A stretch of 49,568 nt of DNA from NCBI GenBank assembly GCA_013378375.1, contig JACAFT010000004.1:1-49568 (forward strand), given 5' to 3'. Origin of the DNA: Nitrososphaerota archaeon (GTDB lineage: Archaea; Thermoproteota; Nitrososphaeria; Nitrososphaerales; UBA57). A program made the position numbers and the translations under genes. Below, one piece after another: positions 24,587 to 35,498 of the stretch. The notes under the pieces were generated by a model, which had not been told where the DNA came from, did no database searches, and saw only the letters and a list, made by a program, of their open reading frames with translations. Every line of letters begins with the position of its first letter. The first letter of the stretch is position 1.

Positions 24587-25765
24587 TCAAGATTTTTTAT
24601 AATATCTATCTCTCCATGTAAAAGGAGAATTAAATTGAATTTTTACAACGGAAATAATTAGTGATGTAAATAATAATATACAAGAAAATGGATGTAAGAA
24701 GACGTACAATTTAGAATGTTTGACATCAATGAATTCAAAAAAATATGATAATTGCATAAAAGAAACTATCAAGAATATTTTAAGAATATTTTCTAATGAA
24801 AAATAAGTAAACTGTAAAACAAGAATATATGGAAGAATTAATGCGAAGAATCCAATAATTATAGTTATTATACCAAAAAATGGATGTATGTCAATAAAAG
24901 ATGAAGAAATACCACGCTGCATTGCATTAATATTATCAGAAAACCCAATGTTTGAAAATGTTTTAACAATATTCCCAGAACGAATAAATTTTAACTTATA
25001 ACCAGCGGTTTTTAGTAATTCACCAAGAGATTTATCTTCTACAAAAGAATTTTTAACAGCTTCATGACCACCTACATCATCATACACTTTTCTATTAATT
25101 AAAATAAAACCTCCTATCAAGTATGCAATAGGTAATTTTTTTGAGTTTAAGAATAAAGGCGAATAAAGAAGATTTATCATAGAGATTAAAATAGGTAAAA
25201 TAAGTTTACTCCAATAATCTTTACAGACAAGTGTAGGAAGAAGAGTCAATACATCAAGATGAAACTTATTCATATATGCTAACGATGAAGAAATAGATTC
25301 TTTATTATGATCAGTATCAGCGTCAGTAAACAATAACATATCGCCAGTGGCTTTTTGTGAACCTTGGTAGCATGCAAAATTTTTTCCAGCCCAGTTCTTC
25401 TTTTTCTCTGATAAATGAATAGAAATAAAACGATCATCGGTTAAACAGAATTTTTGTATAATTTTTAAAGTATCATCAGTTGAACAATCATCAACAACGA
25501 TTACTTCAAAATTATCATAATCCTGTGCCTGTAATGATTTTAAACACCTCGTAATATTCTTTTCTTCGTTTCGTGCAGGAACTATAACAGAAACACGATT
25601 ATTTCCCACATTATCCAAAATTAAATGCCCAAGTTCGTCTATATAAAAAAAAGTAATAATTCGAAATAATACTATAACAAACCATAAAATAACTAGAATT
25701 TGAATAAGCGTATGAAGAAAATATTCAAGGAACATATAATAAATCAGAATCGGGTTAGTTAACAA
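24587..25765 (-). CDS. Membrane GT2 glycosyltransferase (HpnB/CruC-like)
   Basis: VPARNEE, DD.S.D.T, W.GK..A, FTDAD, GGH.....ED; TM helices at both ends; start may be 25735. Confidence 0.88.
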   Translation of the reverse strand: MLTNPILIYYMFLEYFLHTLIQILVILWFVIVLFRIITFFYIDELGHLILDNVGNNRVSVIVPARNEEKNITRCLKSLQAQDYDNFEVIVVDDCSTDDTLKIIQKFCLTDDRFISIHLSEKKKNWAGKNFACYQGSQKATGDMLLFTDADTDHNKESISSSLAYMNKFHLDVLTLLPTLVCKDYWSKLILPILISMINLLYSPLFLNSKKLPIAYLIGGFILINRKVYDDVGGHEAVKNSFVEDKSLGELLKTAGYKLKFIRSGNIVKTFSNIGFSDNINAMQRGISSSFIDIHPFFGIITIIIGFFALILPYILVLQFTYFSLENILKIFLIVSFMQLSYFFEFIDVKHSKLYVFLHPFSCILLFTSLIISVVKIQFNSPFTWRDRYYKKS

Positions 25766-25806
25766 GGTTTATTTACAATATAACATTACCATATGCTAGT
25801 GGTAAT

Positions 25807-26139
25807 ATGAGCGAAGAAAGACAATATTCAGGAATAACATGCGATATGACTGGAGTAATTACAGAATTTGGCCCAGGAGCAGAAAAACTATTTGGCTATA
25901 CAAAAGATGAATTAATTGGAAAAGGAAATGTTGGAATGTTTCATACTGAAGAGAATGTTAAAACATTAGTCCCAGTACTCTTGCAAACGGCAGTAGAGAA
26001 AGGTGTTTGGGAAGAGGTTGTAGAACTAGTCAGGAAGGACGGATCTCATTTTAACGGAAAACTCACTGTTAGACCGTTAAAAGATGGAGACCAACAAATT
26101 GGATTTGTTGGCACGACCGAATTCATTGAAGATATATAA
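25807..26139 (+). CDS. Stand-alone PAS-domain protein
   Basis: D..G.I...GAEKLFGYTKDELIG, RKDGS.F, G...GF.G. Confidence 0.88.
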   Translation: MSEERQYSGITCDMTGVITEFGPGAEKLFGYTKDELIGKGNVGMFHTEENVKTLVPVLLQTAVEKGVWEEVVELVRKDGSHFNGKLTVRPLKDGDQQIGFVGTTEFIEDI

Positions 26140-26153
26140 AAGTGATAAAGTAA

Positions 26154-27161
26154 TTGAAACTTGAAGTTTGGGCAAAAGAATTAAGAATTCCTTTCCTCAG
26201 TCTTCCAGTTATTTTTGTTCCTTTAGGAGTAATGGTTGCATATTTTGATGTTGCAACTATTAATCTACTTCATGCAATATTAACGCTAATAGGTGTGGTA
26301 TGTTTACATGCCAGTGTAAATGTCCTAAATGATTATTTTGATTATAAAAGTGGAATAGATGTTGCAACAACACCAACACCATTCAGCGGAGGTAGTAGGG
26401 TATTACCTGAAAAATTACTGTCGCCAAATAATGTTTTAATTGGCGGAATTATTTTACTGATCATAGGTTCATCAATTGGTTTATATTTCTTAAATTATTT
26501 TGGATTTAATTCAGTTCTATTAGGAATAATTGCAATTTCTATTTTATCAGTAATATTATACTCACCAGTACTTTCTACTTTAGGGTTAGGGGAATTAACA
26601 GTATTTCTTAATTTCGGTCCATTATTATTCTCAGGAGTTTACTTTATTCAAAGTGGAGGAAATTGTTCAAACTGTTTTTACGGATTAGAAATTGAAGCTA
26701 TTATAATTGGTTCAATTGTTGGATTAATGACAACAGGAATATTATATATTAATCAATTTCCAGATACGGAAGCAGATAAATCAAAAGGTAGACGTCACCT
26801 AGTTGCTAGGTTAGGAAAAGAAAGAGCTGTAGGATTATACAATATCATGATGATATTAAGTTATGTAATAATAATTATAGGTGTAATATCATCTTTTGTA
26901 ATTGGAATAGGTATTCCTCCAACATGTCTCATAGCATTAGCTACTTATTCAATGACGCCAAAGGGAAATTATAGAACTGCATCAAAAATTTTAAAAACTG
27001 AATATGACAAGATAATGGAATTAATTCCTGCAATGGGAAATACAGTAATGACAACAATACAAACTGGTATTTTATTGTTAATTGGATACATACTTTGGTT
27101 AGCTTTATTATACATATTCCCAGATGGATTAGCAATCGCCCAAGGAAAATTTATTCAATAA
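26154..27161 (+). CDS. menA: UbiA-family prenyltransferase, MenA-like
   Basis: N..NDYFDYKSG.D, SGGSR, GLGE, N.FPD..AD...GR; multiple TMs. Confidence 0.8.
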   Translation: MKLEVWAKELRIPFLSLPVIFVPLGVMVAYFDVATINLLHAILTLIGVVCLHASVNVLNDYFDYKSGIDVATTPTPFSGGSRVLPEKLLSPNNVLIGGIILLIIGSSIGLYFLNYFGFNSVLLGIIAISILSVILYSPVLSTLGLGELTVFLNFGPLLFSGVYFIQSGGNCSNCFYGLEIEAIIIGSIVGLMTTGILYINQFPDTEADKSKGRRHLVARLGKERAVGLYNIMMILSYVIIIIGVISSFVIGIGIPPTCLIALATYSMTPKGNYRTASKILKTEYDKIMELIPAMGNTVMTTIQTGILLLIGYILWLALLYIFPDGLAIAQGKFIQ

Positions 27162-27217: not shown

Positions 27218-27487
27218 ATGAGACAGTACAAAGTTGTTGCAGAAAGTACAAAAAAATTATTTGAAGAAGAATTGAATAAATTAGCAGAAGAAGGTTGGGA
27301 AATTATACATTATGGAAATTCAGTAAGTGTAGGATCAACAAGATCAAACACAATGGCATGTTTTAGTGCAATTTTAGAAAAAGAAAAAACAATAACTCGA
27401 AAAAAAGTAAAAACAAGTTCTAATAAAAAAAAGAAATCTACTGAAAAAAAAACAGATACATCATCAAATGAGTATTCAACAAACTAG
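27218..27487 (+). CDS. Small DUF4177-like protein with a Lys-rich tail
   Basis: QYKV...EELNKLAEEGWE motif. ATG at 27218 preferred over the track's 27095, which overlaps menA. Confidence 0.65.
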   Translation: MRQYKVVAESTKKLFEEELNKLAEEGWEIIHYGNSVSVGSTRSNTMACFSAILEKEKTITRKKVKTSSNKKKKSTEKKTDTSSNEYSTN

Positions 27488-28287
27488 TTTTCTATAGGTA
27501 AATCAGCACGAGTACTCCAATCGGCAAAAGAACGGTCATAAATTTTTACATTAGGATAATTACAAAATTGTAAAGCAACAAATGTGTGAGATGCACGCTC
27601 TCCAACCTGACAATAACAAATAATTTCCTTATCTTTAGTAATACCGTATTTTTCAAAGATTTTGTCAAGTTCTTCAATATTTTTAAAAATATACCCATCA
27701 GTACCAACTCCTATTTCCCAAGGAAAATTTATCGAACCAGGAATTCGACCTGCTTTAGGTCCAGCTGCAATAACTCCATTAAATTCGTCAGGGCTTCTTG
27801 TATCAAGTAAAATAGAATTTGAATCACTAAGCTTAGATTGGACATATTCATGATTTACTTTAAAATTTACAAAAGGAGTTGTAATAACAAAGTCAGTAGG
27901 TTGAATCTCAGGTACTTCTTCACTAACAGGATAACCTAATTGCAACCATTTAGAAAACGACGTATCAAGAAATTTTACAGTAATTCCATAATATTTTAGC
28001 GACCAGAACAAACGAGTTGCTGTTGCACCGTTTTTATCCCCGTATACAACAATCACGGAATCATTCGTGATTCCATTTACACTGAGTAATTTTTCTATTG
28101 CGTCTTGAGGAGCAACATCAAAAAAAGAAAGATCTTCAGAAAAACTTAATATTTTTTCATAAGGAATCAAATGCGCCCCAGGTAAATGAGATCGTACATA
28201 CTCACGCGGAGACCTTATATCAAAAGGAACAATATTTGGATCTTCAATATTATCTTTAAGCCAAGTAGCACTAATTAAATCAGTCAA
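27484..28287 (-). CDS. Two-domain rhodanese (thiosulfate/mercaptopyruvate sulfurtransferase)
   Basis: D.R...Y...HLPGA, A.RLFW.L, D.R...EF.G, GRIPGS, catalytic YCQVGERAS, YD.S..DW. Confidence 0.93.
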   Translation of the reverse strand: MTDLISATWLKDNIEDPNIVPFDIRSPREYVRSHLPGAHLIPYEKILSFSEDLSFFDVAPQDAIEKLLSVNGITNDSVIVVYGDKNGATATRLFWSLKYYGITVKFLDTSFSKWLQLGYPVSEEVPEIQPTDFVITTPFVNFKVNHEYVQSKLSDSNSILLDTRSPDEFNGVIAAGPKAGRIPGSINFPWEIGVGTDGYIFKNIEELDKIFEKYGITKDKEIICYCQVGERASHTFVALQFCNYPNVKIYDRSFADWSTRADLPIEN

Positions 28288-28515
28288 TTATTTTTTCCTC
28301 AAATAGAATTTAATATAGTTATTTTCCTCAGTTAGTTCTAATAATTCATGTCCTGAACGATTAGCCCATGCAGGTATATCTTCTTTTGCAGCAGGATCAG
28401 TAGCGGATATTTCCAATATTTGTCCACTCTGCATTTTTGAAATTAGTTGTTTTGTTTTTAAAACAGGGATGGGACAAACAAGTCCTTTAACATCTAATGC
28501 TTGATCAATTTTCAT
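28288..28515 (-). CDS. tusA: TusA/SirA-family sulfur carrier (copy 1)
   Basis: LDVKGLVCPIP (CPxP), ATDP....DI..W. Confidence 0.92.
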   Translation of the reverse strand: MKIDQALDVKGLVCPIPVLKTKQLISKMQSGQILEISATDPAAKEDIPAWANRSGHELLELTEENNYIKFYLRKK

Positions 28516-28543
28516 AATATCAATTCGCCAAAAAAAAATTAAA

Positions 28544-28783
28544 TTATATTTTATTAGTTTTAATTTCTATTTTAAACACACCGTCGTCAATTTCTTTAGA
28601 ACTAAGTATTTCATGTCCGTCTTTTTTTACTGCAGAAGGAATATTGATTGTTGATGGCAAATGATCAACAAGTACTTCTAAAACTTCACCGTTTTCTAAT
28701 TTTTTTAATTCTTTCACAGTAAAAATTACAGGCCAGGGACATACTTGTCCAACAAGATCAAGTTTCTTAGTTTGTGTTTGCAT
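28544..28783 (-). CDS. TusA/YeeD-family sulfur carrier (copy 2)
   Basis: LDLVGQVCPWP, LEVL.DH..S..NIP. Confidence 0.9.
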   Translation of the reverse strand: MQTQTKKLDLVGQVCPWPVIFTVKELKKLENGEVLEVLVDHLPSTINIPSAVKKDGHEILSSKEIDDGVFKIEIKTNKI

Positions 28784-28786
28784 GAA

Positions 28787-30217
28787 TCAGTTTCCACCAA
28801 TTTGTAATTGATTTAACAATATATCAGATGCAATCATGTCTTTTACGTCTTCCGAAACTTTAACAATTCCAGTTCCTTTGCCTAAAATTCGACCAATAAT
28901 TTGTGGATCATAACCCGATGCAGACAAATCAAGACTTATACTTTCTATTATATTTGGACTAGCAATAACAGCTACAGCGCCATTAGTGCCTGCAGTACCA
29001 TTGTCCATTAAGAAATTATCAGTAGCAAATTTAACAAATTCTGGATAACGAAGTGGTAAATTATCAATGGAGATATCAACATTTGCATTATCTGCATGTT
29101 CTTTAAAGATCATTATACCAGGACCAGAAAGATCGCCAGTGGCCAGAATATGTTCGTGAATATCAAAGTTGTTTTCAAAATCAGGCAGATATTTATTAAT
29201 AATTTTTGCGACTGCAAGATTAGGTTCGTTCATAGTTTCAATAACTGAATCCTTAGCACGTTGAACATCTTCAAGAGTATAACCAATGGTTTCAAGGTCT
29301 TTAAGGAAATTTTCGTCGGCTACACAAGACAAAAAGACGTTAATAGGTGCAAGATCGCCAAACGGACGTGTAACGAGAATTTCCATACCAGAATCTAACA
29401 AATTTAATTTAGTTGGAGGTTCTTTTCGTAATGAACCAAATAATGTAGCGCCAATTAGTAATTTATTTCGTTTAGGAGACTCTGCAGAAATTAATTCAAT
29501 TTTATATTTAGATGCGAAATTATCCATGTTTTTTAGAATTTGCGCTTCAATTTCTTGATTTGGTGCATCGACAACGGGCAAAACTTTCAGTTCTTCAAAA
29601 CAACCTAAAGATATTAAATCATTAAGAGAATTTGATACGGCGACATTTGTTTGTTGTTCAGATGAAGGGTCTGCAGTAGGATCAATAATTTGTATAGTAT
29701 CATTATTTGATAAACAATAACCGTCGGATCGTCCTTCTTCGTAAGAAATAAAATCAAAAAGTGCAAATTCTGCGTTTTCATCTCCAGTTATTATTGAATG
29801 TCCTTTTCCAACAGCAAAATTAACATTTGATTTAGATATTGATGTATAAAGACTAGTCAACAATGCTTGGAATTTTTCTTGCTTTTCTGCATTCTTTTGA
29901 AATACTTGTAATAGTGAAATAGCTCGTTTTGGATTAATTCGTCTAAGGTCATCTAAATCAACATCAGGATCAAATGGGTTGTAAATTCTGCGATTTATTA
30001 TTGGGCCACTGTCAGTTAAAGGAAATATATCAGCGTCAACTCTCTCACCAAGAGAAATTCCCATTTGTTTTAAATCCGGCTTTAAATTATGCAAAGTAGG
30101 ATAAACTACTGTATTAAGATCAACTTTAACAGCACAACCTGCCACCCATCTTAAAGGATCCATTCCCATTTCTCGGTATTTTGAGACATTGTCCCAAAAT
30201 TCTTGCTTCGTACTCAT
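28787..30217 (-). CDS. Archaeal SelD-like (selenophosphate synthetase-related, PurM fold) protein, putative thiophosphate synthetase
   Basis: AGCAVK matches the SelD C17/K20 spacing (Cys codon TGT). GHSI, NDTIQIIDP, SNSLNDL (N87/D91-like), TRPFG and GDLSGPG (DVTGFG-like) are present. At 476 aa it is longer than canonical SelD. Confidence 0.85.
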   Translation of the reverse strand: MSTKQEFWDNVSKYREMGMDPLRWVAGCAVKVDLNTVVYPTLHNLKPDLKQMGISLGERVDADIFPLTDSGPIINRRIYNPFDPDVDLDDLRRINPKRAISLLQVFQKNAEKQEKFQALLTSLYTSISKSNVNFAVGKGHSIITGDENAEFALFDFISYEEGRSDGYCLSNNDTIQIIDPTADPSSEQQTNVAVSNSLNDLISLGCFEELKVLPVVDAPNQEIEAQILKNMDNFASKYKIELISAESPKRNKLLIGATLFGSLRKEPPTKLNLLDSGMEILVTRPFGDLAPINVFLSCVADENFLKDLETIGYTLEDVQRAKDSVIETMNEPNLAVAKIINKYLPDFENNFDIHEHILATGDLSGPGIMIFKEHADNANVDISIDNLPLRYPEFVKFATDNFLMDNGTAGTNGAVAVIASPNIIESISLDLSASGYDPQIIGRILGKGTGIVKVSEDVKDMIASDILLNQLQIGGN

Positions 30218-30285
30218 TTGTTAACGAATTAATCAGATACCGATAAATATATAAATATAACGGCATTATAAAATATCGATAAGAT
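30218..30285. promoter_or_regulatory. 68-bp divergent promoter with a shared central TATA element
   Basis: ATAAATATATAAATATAA at about 30243..30260 sits roughly 25-40 nt from both start codons (30217 minus, 30286 plus). Confidence 0.6.
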
Positions 30286-31473
30286 ATGGTCGAATCAAAT
30301 AGAAGAGATTTTCTAAAGTATGGAGTTGGAGCAGCTGTTGGTCTAGGAATAGGAGGAGCAGGTTATCTATCTTCAAATTCTCAAGTTGGCACATTAACAA
30401 GTGAACTTGAACAGGTAAAAGAAAAATTACAAGGAAGAGGACATTTAGGCTATGTCTTTGGCGCTGAAGGATCAATTGCAACTATAGATCTAGCTCGTGG
30501 AAAAGTCTTAGCATCATCAGGACCTACTTGGATTGCAGATGCAGGAAGTATAGACTGGTGTAATCATTATCCGGATGCAAATGGAAATGTATGGGGACTT
30601 GTAAGAAAGCAAGGTCAAATAGGATCTACAATTGCAGTTAATCCAACTACGAATGAATTAGTTCACGATGTTCCATTAGAAGGAAGATGGAGAATAAGAT
30701 TAGGAGAAACAGATGAAGAAGGAAAATACGGATACATGTTAAATGGATATATTGCAGATAAATATGATTCAGAAAAATTTAACGCAGCAAGAGATGAATT
30801 TGAAATTCCATATAATGATATAGATCCAGGAGAAATTCATAAAATCGATCTTCTTAAGGGAGAAGTAGTTGATGTATTACCAGTTCCAAAATTCTGTTGT
30901 GACGTTGCAATAGCACCTGATGGTAAATTGTGGCTTGTAAATCAATTAGAGAGTTTGATTTCAGTAGTAGATACAAAGACATTCACAATTGAAGAACATT
31001 TAGGTACAGAATACTCTGACTATGGTGCAAGTATGATAACAATTTCACCCAACAATGATGTTGCATTTATCGAAGTAAATTCAGCAGGAAATTGGTCGAA
31101 TGCAGCTGGATTCAAGAATTTGGATCCGATTGAAATGGTATGGGATATTCAAGCAAAAGAGATGGTTAAAGAGTTTCCATTAGAAGCAGGTCCACGTACT
31201 AGTGAATTTACACCAGATGGAAAATACTGTGTAGTTAGAACCAGACCAGCATCAATAGTATATGATGTAGAAAGCTTGACTGAAGTCACGAGGATAGAAA
31301 TTGAGAATACTGGACATCCAGCATTTAGTCCTGACAGCACTCTTGCGTATATACCAAATCCTGGAGACAGTTCAGTTGATGTATTCGAGGTAGGATCTTT
31401 CAAGAAGGTCGATAGTCTAAAACTACCTTATTCACCATCAAAGATTGTTCCAATCAATACAAACAATTACTAA
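30286..31473 (+). CDS. Tat-exported YncE/YVTN-like beta-propeller protein
   Basis: NRRDFLK twin-arginine motif plus hydrophobic segment; blade repeats APDG, SPN, TPDG, SPD, ISVVD; Cys motifs WCNH, FCCD. Confidence 0.8.
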   Translation: MVESNRRDFLKYGVGAAVGLGIGGAGYLSSNSQVGTLTSELEQVKEKLQGRGHLGYVFGAEGSIATIDLARGKVLASSGPTWIADAGSIDWCNHYPDANGNVWGLVRKQGQIGSTIAVNPTTNELVHDVPLEGRWRIRLGETDEEGKYGYMLNGYIADKYDSEKFNAARDEFEIPYNDIDPGEIHKIDLLKGEVVDVLPVPKFCCDVAIAPDGKLWLVNQLESLISVVDTKTFTIEEHLGTEYSDYGASMITISPNNDVAFIEVNSAGNWSNAAGFKNLDPIEMVWDIQAKEMVKEFPLEAGPRTSEFTPDGKYCVVRTRPASIVYDVESLTEVTRIEIENTGHPAFSPDSTLAYIPNPGDSSVDVFEVGSFKKVDSLKLPYSPSKIVPINTNNY

Positions 31474-31482
31474 GTGGAATAG

Positions 31483-32553
31483 TTGTCAGAACAAAACAAT
31501 CAGAGATTACTATTAGTTAGCTCAATAATAGTTGGGTTAACAATAGGGTTTTTGATTGGAGGAACTTATGTATACCATTTAGACAATGAAGCAGAAATTA
31601 AACAATATCAAGCAGTAGTATTCAATACAATAGGTAAAACAGCAACTGTAATAGATAACATTCAGCTTAAGACTTTAACCAATATAGAAATTAACATTGA
31701 AGAAGGTCAGTACGGAGCACATTTTAATGAAAATAAGAACAAATTATATTTAATTCACGATGGAGAATCAGAATTATTTACTCTAAATCCACAATCATTA
31801 GAAATTGAATCAAGAGTTCGAGTAGGTCCAAATCTTCAACATGCAGGAATATTTGATGAGACTGGAGAAATATTTTTCTTGATAAGTCGTGACTCTAATT
31901 CTTTGATAATGATTAACACAACAACAGATCGAATAATATCGAGAATTGAAGTTCAAGAGCAGCCGCATCATATTGCACTGTTAAATGATGGAGTAGCAGT
32001 TACAAATACAAAATCACTATCAATATCAATTGTTGATATAATAAAAATGGAGGTCAAAGATAACATCAAGATTGATGCAGAACCATTAATGATAGTTTCA
32101 AACAAGAATGATAAAATGTTTGTAGGTGCAATAAATCCTTCAAAAATTTTCTTTATAGATAATAATGAAGTAAAGAACAGCATAAACTTAGAGTCAGATC
32201 CGCACGGAATAGCATTAACGTTAAATGGAGATAATCTTCTTGTGACTATACCTGAAGATGACAAAATATTAATAATAAATATGAAAGGAGAGATAGTGAA
32301 AGAACTAATGACAGGGAGTTTTCCGCATAATATAGATATAGATCCTGATGGAAGATACGGATACATCAGCAACAGTAATGATGCAAGTGTATCAATAATT
32401 GATTTAACAAATTTTGAAATTGTTGCAACATTAGAAACCGGAAACGGATCTCATAATGTACAATTTTACAATATATTGAATAGCAATACTCAATTGAACA
32501 AAATAAAAGACAATAACAAAATAATTAGTGCGAATTTCAATTGTGGGGGTTAG
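31483..32553 (+). CDS. Membrane-anchored YncE/YVTN beta-propeller with His-rich blades and C-terminal CGG
   Basis: N-terminal TM; repeats VGPNLQH, QPHHIA, DPHGIA, FPHNID, GSHNV, VSIID; ends ...ANFNCGG*. Confidence 0.85.
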   Translation: MSEQNNQRLLLVSSIIVGLTIGFLIGGTYVYHLDNEAEIKQYQAVVFNTIGKTATVIDNIQLKTLTNIEINIEEGQYGAHFNENKNKLYLIHDGESELFTLNPQSLEIESRVRVGPNLQHAGIFDETGEIFFLISRDSNSLIMINTTTDRIISRIEVQEQPHHIALLNDGVAVTNTKSLSISIVDIIKMEVKDNIKIDAEPLMIVSNKNDKMFVGAINPSKIFFIDNNEVKNSINLESDPHGIALTLNGDNLLVTIPEDDKILIINMKGEIVKELMTGSFPHNIDIDPDGRYGYISNSNDASVSIIDLTNFEIVATLETGNGSHNVQFYNILNSNTQLNKIKDNNKIISANFNCGG

Positions 32554-32556
32554 AGC

Positions 32557-33654
32557 ATGATAGAATATAATAATATTTTTTCATTAGGCGTGACAGTCTT
32601 GATTGGACTTGGTTTTGGAATACTTCTACAGAAAGGACGTTTTTGTTTTACAAGTGCATTGAGAGATTTTATCGCATTCAAAGATACAAGAGTACTAAAG
32701 GGAGTAATTATCGGAATTATTACAATGATGGCAGGTACTAGTTTAGCATACGTTTTGGGAGTTTCAAGTTCTAATTTCTGGGTATCAAATTATGGATTGT
32801 CAAATATCATAGGAGGATTCATCTTTGGAATAGGCATGGTTTATGGCGGAGGTTGTGCATCTGGAACATTGTATAGAGCAGGAGAAGGATATTTACATTA
32901 TTGGTTAGTGCTAATATCAGCGTGTGTTGGGTATGTAATATTTGCCGCATTATTTTCTGGATTATTTCTACCATACTTTTTCATTCCATTACAAATATTC
33001 GAAGGCTATAGTATAATTAGAAGTTTAGAAGTGTTAGCTCCTCTAGTACCAATATCAATAATATTAGGATTAGTAATTTATCTAAGAAAGAAAAATCAAT
33101 TAGATTTATCACAAGAAATAAGCAAGGTTCAATTTTCAAGTATTACGGTTAAGAAAATAAAATCAGAATGGGATGCAAAAATTGTTGGTTTAGGAATGGG
33201 AATACTAGCAACATTTTGGTTTGTTGTTTGGGGCACATTAAGTGTTACAGGTCCACAAGCAAGATGGGTAGGTTTAGCATACAGCAACATAGCAGGAATA
33301 GAAGTATTAGAACAAAATATGTACTGGAACAATGTTGTATTCAATGAAGGAAATTTTGCAATTAGTTTAGACATGATAATGTTAGTGTGTTTAATTTTTG
33401 GAGCATTTATATCTGCATACATGAGTGGAGATTTTAAAATAAGAACAATTAAATCTAAGAGAATACCCAATGCAGTATTAGGAGGACTAGTTATGGGATT
33501 TGGATCAAGAATGGCACCAGGATGTAATATTAGTAACACATTTAGCGGATTAGCATTTCTATCAGTTGCAGGATTTATAACATCATTAGGTTTAATATTA
33601 GGAGTATATGTTGCAACACATTGGATGTTTAGAAAAACAGGTTGCGCAATTTAG
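32557..33654 (+). CDS. YeeE/YedE-family sulfur-compound (thiosulfate) transporter
   Basis: RFCF, GG.IFGIGM...GGCASG.L, GG..MGFG.R.A.GCN (three conserved Cys); multi-TM. Confidence 0.93.
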   Translation: MIEYNNIFSLGVTVLIGLGFGILLQKGRFCFTSALRDFIAFKDTRVLKGVIIGIITMMAGTSLAYVLGVSSSNFWVSNYGLSNIIGGFIFGIGMVYGGGCASGTLYRAGEGYLHYWLVLISACVGYVIFAALFSGLFLPYFFIPLQIFEGYSIIRSLEVLAPLVPISIILGLVIYLRKKNQLDLSQEISKVQFSSITVKKIKSEWDAKIVGLGMGILATFWFVVWGTLSVTGPQARWVGLAYSNIAGIEVLEQNMYWNNVVFNEGNFAISLDMIMLVCLIFGAFISAYMSGDFKIRTIKSKRIPNAVLGGLVMGFGSRMAPGCNISNTFSGLAFLSVAGFITSLGLILGVYVATHWMFRKTGCAI

Positions 33655-33666
33655 GAGTAATAAATA

Positions 33667-33945
33667 ATGTCAAAAGAAATAGAAATATCAAATGAGGAAA
33701 TTACTGAATTGGAAACCAATTCGAGTTCAATAGACATGGAAGGAGAAGTTTGTCCTTATCCTCAAATCATTGCGCGAGAAGAACTAAAGAAAATAGAACC
33801 TGGAGGAATTGTAATTATTAAAACAGATCATGTAATGGCAACTAAAGCAGTACCTCAATCAGTAATTGAAGAAATATCAAAATATGGTATTTGGAAATCA
33901 GGAGCAGGTCAATATAAAATAGTATTGTGGAAAAAAAGCAAATAA
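33667..33945 (+). CDS. TusA/YeeD-family sulfur carrier (copy 3, partner of YeeE)
   Basis: IDMEGEVCPYP, TDH..A...VP; directly after YeeE; GGAG upstream. Confidence 0.88.
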   Translation: MSKEIEISNEEITELETNSSSIDMEGEVCPYPQIIAREELKKIEPGGIVIIKTDHVMATKAVPQSVIEEISKYGIWKSGAGQYKIVLWKKSK

Positions 33946-33995: not shown

Positions 33996-35498
33996 TTGTC
34001 ACTTAGAATTGCATATGCTGGAAGTATACAAATTATAACTCAATTCGCTACACTGTTTACAGGTCTAGCTTTTGTCATCATAATTACACGAAACTTATCA
34101 GTAGAAGAATTTGGGCTTTGGCAGGTCTTAGGAAACACAATTGGACTGGCGGTAATCCCAATATTCCCAATTGGATACTGGGCTCTAAGGAATATTTCAC
34201 GTGGAGAAGATGTAGGAAAAACTGCAGTATATTCTGGTATTATATCCATTCCAATAATCATTCTCGGATATATTATACTATTAACGTTTGCATCTACAAT
34301 ATTTGAAGCGGGATTTAATTCACCAATATTATATCTGGCAGTTATTGCAATGGTTCAAATACCATTTTTAGTATTAATTGAACCATTCAAATCAATAATA
34401 CGCGGAACACGTCCTCAATTTATAGGTTATTCATCATTAGGTTTTGAAATTGCAAAAGTGAGTGTAGCCTATTACTTAGTACATATCAACAGTTTATCAT
34501 TAATCGGCGCAATAATATCATTAGCTGCGGCACAACTAATTCAAGTTCTTATCATGTATTATGGTTCGTATAATAGAATTCGTGGTAAATTTCAAATTAA
34601 TGTAGCACGTTCTTGGATTTCAGCATCATGGATTCCATTTTTTGGTTTTGGCGTCAGTAGAATATTTTTATTTGATTCTTTAATTGTTTCTCTACTTGCA
34701 GGTACAACTATAATAGTTGGACTTTATGCAGCATGTAAGACATTTACATCAATAGTAAGATATAGCGAAATATTTCAACGAATTTTGTATCCAAAATTAA
34801 TGAAAGATAAACTTTCCAGTGATGTCACAATGACTCTAAAACTACAAACATTGGTACAAGTTCCACTCGCTATAGGAGCTTTCATGCTTGCAGAACCGCT
34901 TTTAGGTATATTAAAAGCAGATTATGTACAAGTTGCAAATGTACTTCGTCTATTAATCATTGTAGCAATCTTTGAAGGAATAGAAAATGCAGTGCAAAAC
35001 GTTCTAATAGGTTCAGAGGATTCAGACAGAGATATCAATAATCTTAAATTTAAAATCTTAAGGAAAACATGGTTATTCAAACTCCCACTTATTGACGTAT
35101 TCAAATCTTTACTTTATGTAGGAGGATTGGCCGCAATAATACTTATTTTCAAAAATACAACAGACAACATTACTTTAGCTTTATACTGGGGAATTCTTTA
35201 TGCAGGAATAGTAATTCCATTTACAATTTTTAAATACATAGCAGCTCGTTCAGTAATGCCTTTTGTCTTTCCAAAAACTCAAGCAATAATATACTCAATT
35301 GGTGGTGTAATAATGGTGTTATTCTTACAATTTTATAAAAATACTTTTCAATGGACGCAATCAGGAATATTAGAAACAATCATATATATAATTCCTCCAG
35401 GAATAATTTCAGTAGGAATCTATGTAATTTTTGTATATATCTTTGAAAAAGACTTTAGAATACTTGTTCAAAATCTTGTAAAAAATATATCCAACTAA
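33996..35498 (+). CDS. Oligosaccharide flippase (Wzx/MOP family)
   Basis: TRNLS.EEFG.W, about 13-14 hydrophobic segments; starts the glycan cluster. Confidence 0.8.
   Translation: MSLRIAYAGSIQIITQFATLFTGLAFVIIITRNLSVEEFGLWQVLGNTIGLAVIPIFPIGYWALRNISRGEDVGKTAVYSGIISIPIIILGYIILLTFASTIFEAGFNSPILYLAVIAMVQIPFLVLIEPFKSIIRGTRPQFIGYSSLGFEIAKVSVAYYLVHINSLSLIGAIISLAAAQLIQVLIMYYGSYNRIRGKFQINVARSWISASWIPFFGFGVSRIFLFDSLIVSLLAGTTIIVGLYAACKTFTSIVRYSEIFQRILYPKLMKDKLSSDVTMTLKLQTLVQVPLAIGAFMLAEPLLGILKADYVQVANVLRLLIIVAIFEGIENAVQNVLIGSEDSDRDINNLKFKILRKTWLFKLPLIDVFKSLLYVGGLAAIILIFKNTTDNITLALYWGILYAGIVIPFTIFKYIAARSVMPFVFPKTQAIIYSIGGVIMVLFLQFYKNTFQWTQSGILETIIYIIPPGIISVGIYVIFVYIFEKDFRILVQNLVKNISN

Follow-up and report, generated by a model that had tools for sequence, protein, structure and literature searches.

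In bacteria, selD clusters with yedE and yedF, and in the HypE/HypF maturation pair a PurM-superfamily ATPase and an acylphosphatase-domain protein act on a cysteine-bound group. The SelD-like family was defined computationally by Li et al. in 2014, who reported it only from Sulfolobales and Thermoproteales, named a SirA-like (TusA) protein, a 'Prx-like' COG2210 protein, a rhodanese and a fused acylphosphatase domain as its partners, found it restricted to organisms without selenium traits, and proposed, from computation only, that it synthesizes thiophosphate (PMC4210487). As for sulfur import, three cysteines of the solved YeeE (6leo) hand thiosulfate to a cysteine of YeeD (PMC11073785), and in Hyphomicrobium periplasmic Sox sulfur reaches the cytoplasm through the YeeE-like SoxT (PMC11582611). 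In this study, we analysed a stretch of 49,568 nucleotides of a Nitrososphaerota archaeon (assembly GCA_013378375.1, contig JACAFT010000004.1; hereafter the window) and found an eight-gene locus with two arms. The left arm encodes a SelD-like protein, two TusA-type sulfur carriers (TusA_b and TusA_c) and a rhodanese, and the right arm encodes a propeller with a twin-arginine translocation (Tat) signal, a membrane-anchored propeller, a YeeE/YedE-family transporter and a third carrier, TusA_d. We regard it, with moderate confidence, as a route for acquisition and relay of reduced sulfur that replaces sulfate reduction in a heterotrophic marine lineage of Nitrososphaerota.

The locus beside described SelD-like and YeeE systems

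Protein identities were assigned with Pfam and NCBIfam profile searches. The SelD-like protein scored 547.6 bits against NF038049 (cut-off 250), its residues 6-472 covering positions 2-464 of the 465-position model; it had no Pfam match and stayed below the cut-offs of the canonical SelD models TIGR00476 (16 bits vs 125) and NF010705 (49.9 bits vs 291). Its N-terminal motif Gly-Cys-Ala-Val-Lys includes C28 and K31, and C28 is invariant in 21 of 21 diverse members of the family. The same 21 members also share G27, V30, K31, D33, GKGH 137-140, NNDTI 171-175, N196, D200 and D362, together with a C-terminal set made up of G365, P366, G367, T408, G410, T411, N412, G413 and A414. The conserved Cys-x-x-Lys motif and Asp/Asn residues (C28, K31, D33, N196, D200, D362) agree with the retention of catalytic residues stated by Li et al. 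(PMC4210487), from whom the correspondence to E. coli SelD residues is taken rather than from an alignment of our own. A phmmer search of solved structures with the protein itself gave no match, and the family profile matched them weakly, with HypE on top (E 0.012), followed by PurM (E 0.28) and selenophosphate synthetase (E 0.63). The likeness to HypE/HypF extends to neighbours, as an acylphosphatase lies within 5 kb of the SelD-like gene or is fused to it at 35 of 79 other loci (26 free, 9 fused). However, the conserved cysteine of SelD-like proteins is N-terminal as in SelD, whereas that of HypE is C-terminal, and the window locus has no acylphosphatase.

Among 5.8 billion proteins we found 201 SelD-like matches, some of them with sources named Nitrososphaerales, Halobacteria, Hydrothermarchaeales and Acetothermia, and a scan of one genome per species gave at least 101 SelD-like loci, 80 of which were retained. 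Sulfolobus acidocaldarius, taken as a control, also passed the family cut-off. A quick maximum-likelihood tree of 78 sequences, rooted at the midpoint and with support from the Shimodaira-Hasegawa-like approximate likelihood ratio test, separated two groups. One comprises 56 rows, almost all Thermoproteota. The other comprises 22 rows (support 98), namely the window, seven marine metagenome-assembled genomes (MAGs), other Nitrososphaerota, Halobacteria/Methanobacteriota, one Hydrothermarchaeota and six bacterial sequences. The host of the window belongs to a marine lineage, with relatives in groundwater, and is not a hyperthermophilic sulfur-reducing crenarchaeon. Because a hyperthermophilic host is a feature of the first description and not of the hidden Markov model (HMM), the range of the family is wider than published. 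The protein agrees with the family of Li et al. in its HMM score, in its Cys-x-x-Lys and Asp/Asn core and in its TusA/SirA and rhodanese neighbours, but differs in its marine, non-hyperthermophilic host, in its place in the separate clade (22 of the 78 rows) with Halobacteria, Hydrothermarchaeota and Bipolaricaulota, and in having no acylphosphatase adjacent or fused. The YeeE and propeller partners, moreover, go unmentioned in that paper (PMC4210487).

A divergent SelD-like homologue (27-30% identity, 236-267 bits) is present in ammonia-oxidising relatives with genomes of about 3 Mb (G042, G028 and G052; L037 314-1756, L038 9266-10630 and L039 9116-10540). The lysine of the Cys-x-x-Lys motif is replaced in these homologues and in one case the cysteine is lost, and no TusA, rhodanese or YeeE gene was detected beside them; they are possibly non-catalytic or repurposed paralogues. 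In another genome (G014), the SelD-like gene lies in two pieces (265 and 199 aa matched; L035 7518-8922) with a gap of 13 bp, which may be a frameshift or an assembly error.

The transporter of the right arm matches the solved Spirochaeta thermophila YeeE (6leo_A) with an E value of 6.6e-27, and its C30, C100 and C323 align with C22, C91 and C293. Among 33 neighbouring YeeE homologues, C30 is conserved in 31 and C100 in 32. Like YeeE/YeeD (TsuA/TsuB) of E. coli and S. thermophila, the locus joins three aligned cysteines with a TusA-like CPxP protein (PMC11073785). TusA_d is encoded 12 bp downstream of YeeE, and its score against the YeeD model NF041048 is 28.5 bits, under the cut-off. The locus differs from YeeE/YeeD in scores that stay below the equivalog level, in the setting of the pair among two extracytoplasmic propellers and a SelD-like enzyme, and in a host genome in which no sulfite-handling enzyme was found.

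The remaining carriers and the rhodanese retain their expected cysteines. The cysteine of the CPxP motif is conserved in 53 of 53 sequences for TusA_b, 17 of 17 for TusA_c and 6 of 6 for TusA_d. The TusA_b gene begins 3 bp past the SelD-like stop codon, and the rhodanese-TusA_c pair is retained in other genera of the host family. The rhodanese matches PF00581 with 120 bits in two stretches, which correspond to two domains; its active-site Cys226 lies in the C-terminal one and is kept in 27 of the 28 homologues adjoining SelD-like genes. Its best NCBIfam match is 3-mercaptopyruvate sulfurtransferase (115.8 bits, under the cut-off of 250).

The Tat propeller matches the signal model TIGR01409 (18.7 bits vs a cut-off of 16.7) and falls under all domain cut-offs. 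Its AlphaFold2 model is an all-beta propeller (predicted local distance difference test score 79.8, predicted template modelling score 0.79), for which Foldseek returned generic seven-bladed propellers only. The best was 1l0q_A (E 6e-15), and the others included an archaeal S-layer YVTN domain, the beta subunit of quinohemoprotein amine dehydrogenase, NirF and hydrazine synthase beta. Since thiocyanate dehydrogenase appears only at ranks 21-44 with a template modelling score of about 0.55, no functional conclusion is drawn from it. The family is narrow, with 22 homologues at 61% identity or more and the next ones at 23-34%. All 13 archaeal and all three bacterial homologues share C205 and M250, which, judged from the strand order of the model and from the YVTN repeat pattern, would lie at the starts of the innermost strands of adjacent blades. 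One same-genus genome (G001) holds two copies of this gene (C17:59622-60797 and C4:6-1184), 90% and 71% identical to that of the window, the second of which precedes the remaining right arm; these could reflect a strain mixture or a duplication.

The membrane propeller scored 30.6 bits against PF21783 (cut-off 27.1), 30.5 against PF02239 (over its cut-off) and 39.2 against TIGR02276 (cut-off 27.85). It is of the YVTN type and evolves fast, and the N-terminal anchor is retained by relatives of equal size that share 28-36% identity with it. Down to 28% identity, its relatives also keep a His/Met ring with one residue per blade (H120, H162, M203, H241 and H282 in 6 of 6, H324 in 5 of 6). The protein ends in Asn-Cys-Gly-Gly, where C354 is conserved in 6 of 6, and the tail Ser-Ala-Asn-Phe-Asn/Thr-Cys-Gly-Gly is retained in most relatives. 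Bacterial homologues have a cysteine in place of H162 and a Cys-rich tail. SoxY, for comparison, carries sulfur on the cysteine of a carboxy-terminal GGCGG (PMC6067878). As in SoxYZ and SoxT1A of Hyphomicrobium denitrificans, an extracytoplasmic protein with a glycine-flanked C-terminal cysteine is here followed by a YeeE-family importer and TusA (PMC11582611), but the protein is a seven-bladed propeller and not a SoxY fold, and no Sox family appears among the Pfam and NCBIfam matches. The likeness to SoxY is one of a single motif and of logic, by analogy, and not of membership. A role like that of tetrathionate hydrolase or methanethiol oxidase was also considered for the propellers and dropped, the sole trace being MtoX matches of 17-19 bits in Bipolaricaulota homologues.

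Conserved neighbourhoods and the swap with sulfate reduction

Inside the host family, the right arm and sulfate assimilation are mutually exclusive among the genera sampled. YeeE was found in the host genome and in the seven other genomes of its genus (g1), as well as in the one genome of g4, but in none of the six genomes of g2, g3 and g5, and the Tat propeller shows an identical pattern. The NIR_SIR domain, in contrast, was found neither in the host genome, nor in the seven of g1, nor in the one of g4, but in all genomes of g2 (3/3), g3 (1/1) and g5 (2/2). Likewise, 3'-phosphoadenosine 5'-phosphosulfate (PAPS) reductase scores 172-176 bits in two genomes (G008 and G009) and at most 21 bits in g1. 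In G008 and G012, which belong to one sister genus, an open reading frame (ORF) with a NIR_SIR domain (632 and 644 aa; L022 10559-12457 and G012:C15 about 50577-51152) directly follows the SelD-like-TusA pair. That of G008 matches the assimilatory sulfite reductase hemoprotein with 312 bits and nitrite reductase with 99 bits, and both genomes have additional NIR_SIR-domain ORFs elsewhere. Some relatives thus have the core beside a sulfite-reductase-like gene, a source of sulfide, and others have it beside an importer and surface proteins, which points to reduced sulfur as the input of the SelD-like enzyme.

These observations fit what has been reported for the lineage. The heterotrophic marine group is described as deficient in sulfur metabolism, without sulfite reductase and with sulfur-poor proteins (PMC13374868), and Aylward and Santoro reported heterotrophic marine thaumarchaea to be without identifiable sulfate reductases (PMC7300363). 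The window is contig C34 of an assembly of 918,577 bp in 46 contigs, 86.7% complete and of about 31% G+C. Its host is a non-ammonia-oxidising marine member of the Nitrososphaerota: archaeal amoA was not found in the host genome nor in 14 other genomes of the family, but was found in all 15 genomes sampled from four further families of the order. The closest SelD-like sequences (83-84% identity) come from marine MAGs labelled Thaumarchaeota or Nitrososphaerales, including the ASW8 MAG, one of those that Aylward and Santoro assign to the heterotrophic marine thaumarchaea, whose genomes measure about 1 Mb (PMC7300363). The locus is matched by near-identical DNA in 13 marine or seawater runs, which belong to 8 studies and do not include a possible source run, and relatives of the SelD-like locus are found in marine and groundwater MAGs. 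The host genome encodes a cysteine-synthase-like protein (267 bits) beside a cysteine-desulfurase-like one (494 bits), so that likely consumers of reduced sulfur exist.

The arrangement of the locus is not restricted to the window. Five of seven same-genus genomes have the same eight-gene order, and in the other two a contig end truncates the locus. The seven correspond to the marine MAG loci of the species scan, so that each is counted once. As the order recurs within the genus, the arrangement is not due to chance. In a second genus (G010), the left arm lies on one contig, and the Tat propeller, the membrane propeller, YeeE, TusA and the 500-aa membrane protein that also flanks the window locus lie in order on another. 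The other three genera of the family have only the core, rearranged as a rhodanese-TusA pair divergent from a SelD-like-TusA pair. At the 79 other SelD-like loci, TusA was found within 5 kb of the SelD-like gene at 54 (within 300 bp at 49), YeeE at 32, rhodanese at 24 and a propeller at 10, and counts based on clustering are close to these (TusA 58, YeeE 32, rhodanese 25, Tat propeller 10, acylphosphatase 26); only 43 of the 79 loci have a 3-kb flank on both sides, so that all these counts are lower bounds. A YeeE-TusA-SelD-like run occurs frequently in Pyrodictiaceae, Acidilobaceae, Thermofilaceae, Ignisphaera and hot-spring Nitrososphaeria. One Acetothermia MAG (L090) has, in this order on one strand, genes for a SelD-like protein, a Tat propeller, a rhodanese with a Tat-like N-terminus and a YeeE (281 bits to TsuA), and in the Bipolaricaulota MAGs L110 and L113 a homologous propeller directly follows the SelD-like gene, as it does in three of five Bipolaricaulota/Fraserbacteria loci overall.

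The preliminary description of the window had proposed a relay from import through TusA and rhodanese to the SelD-like enzyme, made of genes that should co-occur in other genomes, and had not recognised the combination as a described system. Co-occurrence is borne out by the same-genus genomes and by the SelD-like-TusA, YeeE-TusA-SelD-like and SelD-like-propeller pairings in unrelated lineages, and the relay fits these neighbourhoods conserved across phyla. The claim of novelty holds in part. The SelD-like core with SirA/TusA and rhodanese was published in 2014 (PMC4210487), and the family is named by NCBI, but the YeeE link, the mesophilic marine Nitrososphaerota host and the two-propeller module are absent from the literature searched. 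Searches for the SelD-like family with TusA, or for thiophosphate and SelD homologues, returned nothing relevant beyond Li et al. and one selenium preprint, and a published paper on sulfur-transferase cascades makes no mention of SelD or acylphosphatase. Relative to the literature searched, the new elements are a widespread YeeE-TusA-SelD-like module, a range of the family that takes in Bipolaricaulota and mesophilic marine archaea, the swap with sulfate assimilation among genera of the host family, and the pair of propellers with conserved hub residues and a tail like that of SoxY.

Some SelD-like neighbours are seen only elsewhere. Among the 79 loci (L043-L122), a dual-specificity-phosphatase-like gene follows the SelD-like gene at 4, a ThiF-family gene occurs at 6 and an FTR1 permease gene at 7, none of them at the window locus. 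In L054 (1-13033), from a MAG labelled Acidobacteriota, genes for GcvH/LbpA-like, thioredoxin, HdrA-, HdrB- and HdrC-like proteins face a SelD-like-TusA-rhodanese-acylphosphatase-TusA set on the opposite strand. In the tree, the SelD-like protein of this contig is placed within archaeal sequences, which could reflect a transfer of genes or an error in binning. The contig also hints at a connection with sHdr-type sulfur oxidation.

A proposed sulfur route and its rivals

In the route that we favour, the two extracytoplasmic propellers would bind or convert external sulfur species, a presumed surface capture, and YeeE with the YeeD-like TusA_d would import the sulfur, more probably as sulfane sulfur than as thiosulfate. 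The rhodanese together with TusA_b and TusA_c would relay the sulfur as a persulfide. The SelD-like enzyme would take it on Cys28 and activate it with ATP, a sulfur-phosphorus chemistry suggested by analogy with selenophosphate synthesis, to yield thiophosphate or a related S-P compound for use in biosynthesis. The choice of substrate follows from the host genome: as no sulfite reductase, sulfite-oxidase domain, Hdr-type CCG domain or DsrE over its cut-off was found there, we lean towards sulfane species and towards assimilation. For the SelD-like family, described in 2014, a thiophosphate product would add a new activated form of sulfur to biology, a question for which this locus offers a sharper context than hot-spring archaea do. 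The heterotrophic marine Nitrososphaerota are widespread in the dark ocean and are reported without sulfate assimilation, and the locus is a concrete candidate for how these archaea obtain sulfur and for which sulfur species they need.

Several points weigh against this route. The third YeeE cysteine is aligned in only 7 of the 33 neighbouring homologues, and the transporter stays well under the TsuA equivalog cut-offs (130.9 bits vs 400 for NF052577, 107.8 vs 645 for NF041049), its highest NCBIfam score being that for the selenium-type YedE/FdhT (164.3 vs 350). Were thiosulfate the substrate, sulfite would be released, yet neither a sulfite reductase nor a sulfite-oxidase Mo domain was found in the host genome. 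The acylphosphatase that is frequent at other SelD-like loci is missing here, the single one of the host genome lying elsewhere (G000:C2:11578-11829). Neither Foldseek nor Atlas searches gave specific functional relatives of the propellers, the latter returning generic YncE, YVTN and lactonase clusters only. As the genera compared are related, the complementarity of YeeE and the reductases may represent one evolutionary event rather than a statistic, and the genomes compared are 70-96% complete (those of the host genus 71-96%, the host 86.7%). A 2026 review still calls the role of SelD-like proteins speculative (PMC13188914). RNA-library contigs from 4 runs of 3 studies cover parts of the SelD-like gene and of both propeller genes, two of them spanning the junction between the propellers; such contigs may include DNA and can neither rank the genes nor show co-regulation, and although none falls on the rhodanese, TusA or YeeE genes or on the spacer, no conclusion is drawn from these gaps.

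One rival reading is a route for selenium, which the preliminary description had placed beside sulfur. A YedE-like importer and YedF-like carriers would then deliver selenium to the SelD-like enzyme for selenophosphate synthesis. The bacterial selD-yedE-yedF clusters bring together members of the same three protein superfamilies, the top NCBIfam score of the transporter is of the selenium type, and TusA_b and TusA_d score best against YedF. In addition, a YedE-like protein has been tied to selenium transport in Methanococcus (PMC11582611), and the Cys-x-x-Lys motif is common to SelD-like proteins and SelD (PMC4210487). However, the YedE and YedF scores are all under their cut-offs, and the YedE match is split in two stretches, the best covering residues 8-135. 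In contrast to the bacterial clusters, the enzyme stays under the cut-offs of the canonical SelD models, and a search of the genome revealed no trait of selenium utilisation, although with 13% of it missing this does not amount to proof: the best scores in the 86.7%-complete host genome are 26.7 bits for canonical selD (cut-off 125) and 28.8 for tRNA-Sec (cut-off 47), and SepSecS and MnmH had no match, YqeB/YqeC and SenA/SenB not having been searched for. SelD-like-TusA also lies beside a sulfite-reductase-like gene in sister-genus genomes, and all the organisms in which Li et al. saw the family lack selenium traits (PMC4210487). Sulfur is therefore far likelier than selenium, the selenium half of the proposed relay was not borne out, and we consider the selenium route highly improbable. 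A cysteine desulfurase, which the preliminary description had also thought relevant in the host, does have a candidate in the 494-bit gene mentioned above.

Other readings keep sulfur but change its purpose or the unity of the locus. It is rather improbable that the locus buffers, detoxifies or senses reactive sulfur instead of supplying biosynthesis. Rhodaneses and TusA proteins do limit cellular sulfane sulfur as well (PMC9163753), one SoxT homologue works in signalling (PMC11582611), and, within the genus, the neighbourhood of the locus retains a small PAS-domain gene. Yet homeostasis leaves unexplained both an ATP-using enzyme with SelD-type catalytic residues and the swap with sulfite and PAPS reductases, and no regulator is encoded within the locus. 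Very unlikely in our view is a dissimilatory use, in which the cell would gain energy by cytoplasmic oxidation of imported thiosulfate or sulfane sulfur, as SoxT1A-TusA-sHdr systems do, with the SelD-like enzyme as an accessory. Such a use would suit L054, where the SelD-like, TusA, rhodanese and acylphosphatase set adjoins Hdr-like and GcvH/LbpA-like genes. YeeE-type importers feed sulfur oxidation in Hyphomicrobium (PMC11582611), and the same role is proposed in Sulfolobaceae, where yeeE is strongly induced by sulfur (PMC11323534). In the host genome, however, no HdrB-type CCG domain and no sulfite-oxidase domain were found, the best DsrE match is 20 bits against a cut-off of 22.7, and the published descriptions of the lineage that were consulted make no mention of sulfur oxidation. 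The probability is equally very low that the two arms are unrelated neighbours, a SelD-like/TusA/rhodanese operon abutting a propeller/YeeE operon in one genus. Other genera of the family do carry left-arm genes without a right arm, and since flanking genes are also syntenic in the genus, order by itself is weak evidence. Against this stand the 32 of 79 loci, in several phyla, with YeeE within 5 kb of the SelD-like gene, and the homologous propellers after the SelD-like gene in Bipolaricaulota/Fraserbacteria, lineages which starred branches of the tree separate from the clade of the window.

The reduced-sulfur route can also be extended to a fuller and bolder version, which we hold to be unlikely as a whole. 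The propellers would be a new extracytoplasmic capture device, the membrane propeller holding a metal in its His/Met ring and sulfane sulfur on its Cys-Gly-Gly arm, and the Tat propeller loading or unloading that arm through its hub cysteine. YeeE would then pass the sulfur to TusA, and the SelD-like enzyme would use ATP to make thiophosphate as a bound, non-volatile donor for cysteine or cofactor synthesis, in a new assimilation pathway replacing sulfate reduction. One possible course for it is an S-phosphocysteine-type intermediate, hydrolysed by acylphosphatase and phosphatase-like neighbours where these are present. If true, the propeller with the SoxY-like tail would be a new kind of extracellular sulfur carrier, and the whole route would be a new sulfur-assimilation pathway in an abundant archaeal group of the deep ocean.

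Layout of the locus and its flanks

All eight ORFs given in the preliminary description were found again, with the same coordinates and identities, by ORF calls and by Pfam and NCBIfam searches (Table 1), and they form two arms that diverge from the spacer. The tight packing was likewise confirmed, the gaps being 3, 28 and 0 bp in the left arm and 9, 3 and 12 bp in the right arm (0-28 bp overall), as was the presence of a cysteine motif in every product, in the sense that homologue alignments show at least one conserved cysteine in each of the eight.

Table 1. Features of the eight-gene locus (positions in the window)
Feature	Coordinates	Strand	Evidence
Tandem-domain rhodanese sulfurtransferase, 267 aa	27484..28287	-	PF00581
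TusA-type sulfur carrier TusA_c, 75 aa, CPIP motif	28288..28515	-	PF01206, 90.8 bits
TusA-type sulfur carrier TusA_b, 79 aa, CPWP motif	28544..28783	-	PF01206, 71.7 bits
SelD-related putative sulfur metabolism protein, PurM/SelD superfamily, 476 aa	28787..30217	-	NF038049
Divergent spacer, 68 bp	30218..30285	.	sequence and alignment of same-genus loci
Tat-signal seven-bladed beta-propeller, 395 aa	30286..31473	+	TIGR01409, AlphaFold2 model
Membrane-anchored YncE/YVTN-type propeller, 356 aa, N-terminal hydrophobic anchor	31483..32553	+	PF21783, PF02239
YeeE/YedE-family membrane transporter, 365 aa	32557..33654	+	PF04143, 190.8 bits
TusA/YeeD-like carrier TusA_d, 92 aa, CPYP motif	33667..33945	+	PF01206, 38.8 bits

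The spacer had been described as one shared promoter. Its 23-nt core (30248-30270), with TATA-like A/T runs, is invariant in the window and in six same-genus loci, in which the spacer is 67-71 bp long; the seventh same-genus spacer was left out of the alignment because the ORF caller picked upstream starts there. The larger of these runs (30248-30259) is 30 nt away from the start codon on one side and 26 nt away from that on the other side. Judged from the sequence, this core would fit either back-to-back or shared archaeal promoter elements with short leaders, so that the conserved TATA-like core stands and a single shared promoter is a possible form of it.

An Rfam search of the window gave no match. 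With bacterial settings, aragorn reported 13 tRNAs in the host genome, a count that was not used as evidence on tRNA-Sec. The flanks of the locus (24587-27161 and 33996-35498) hold a family-2 glycosyltransferase, a 110-aa PAS protein, a UbiA prenyltransferase and a 500-aa polytopic membrane protein without a Pfam hit. Their order is kept in the genus and partly in G010, and the PAS protein is the sole sensor-like gene product nearby. The glycosyltransferase, PAS and UbiA genes, together with a small DUF4177 gene, were considered as members of the system and dropped, as they are syntenic in the genus and in G010 but not elsewhere. The DUF4177 ORF (27218-27487, plus strand; 25.3 bits vs a cut-off of 25) converges on the rhodanese gene with a 4-bp overlap of their ends, and is kept within the genus at 53-77% identity.

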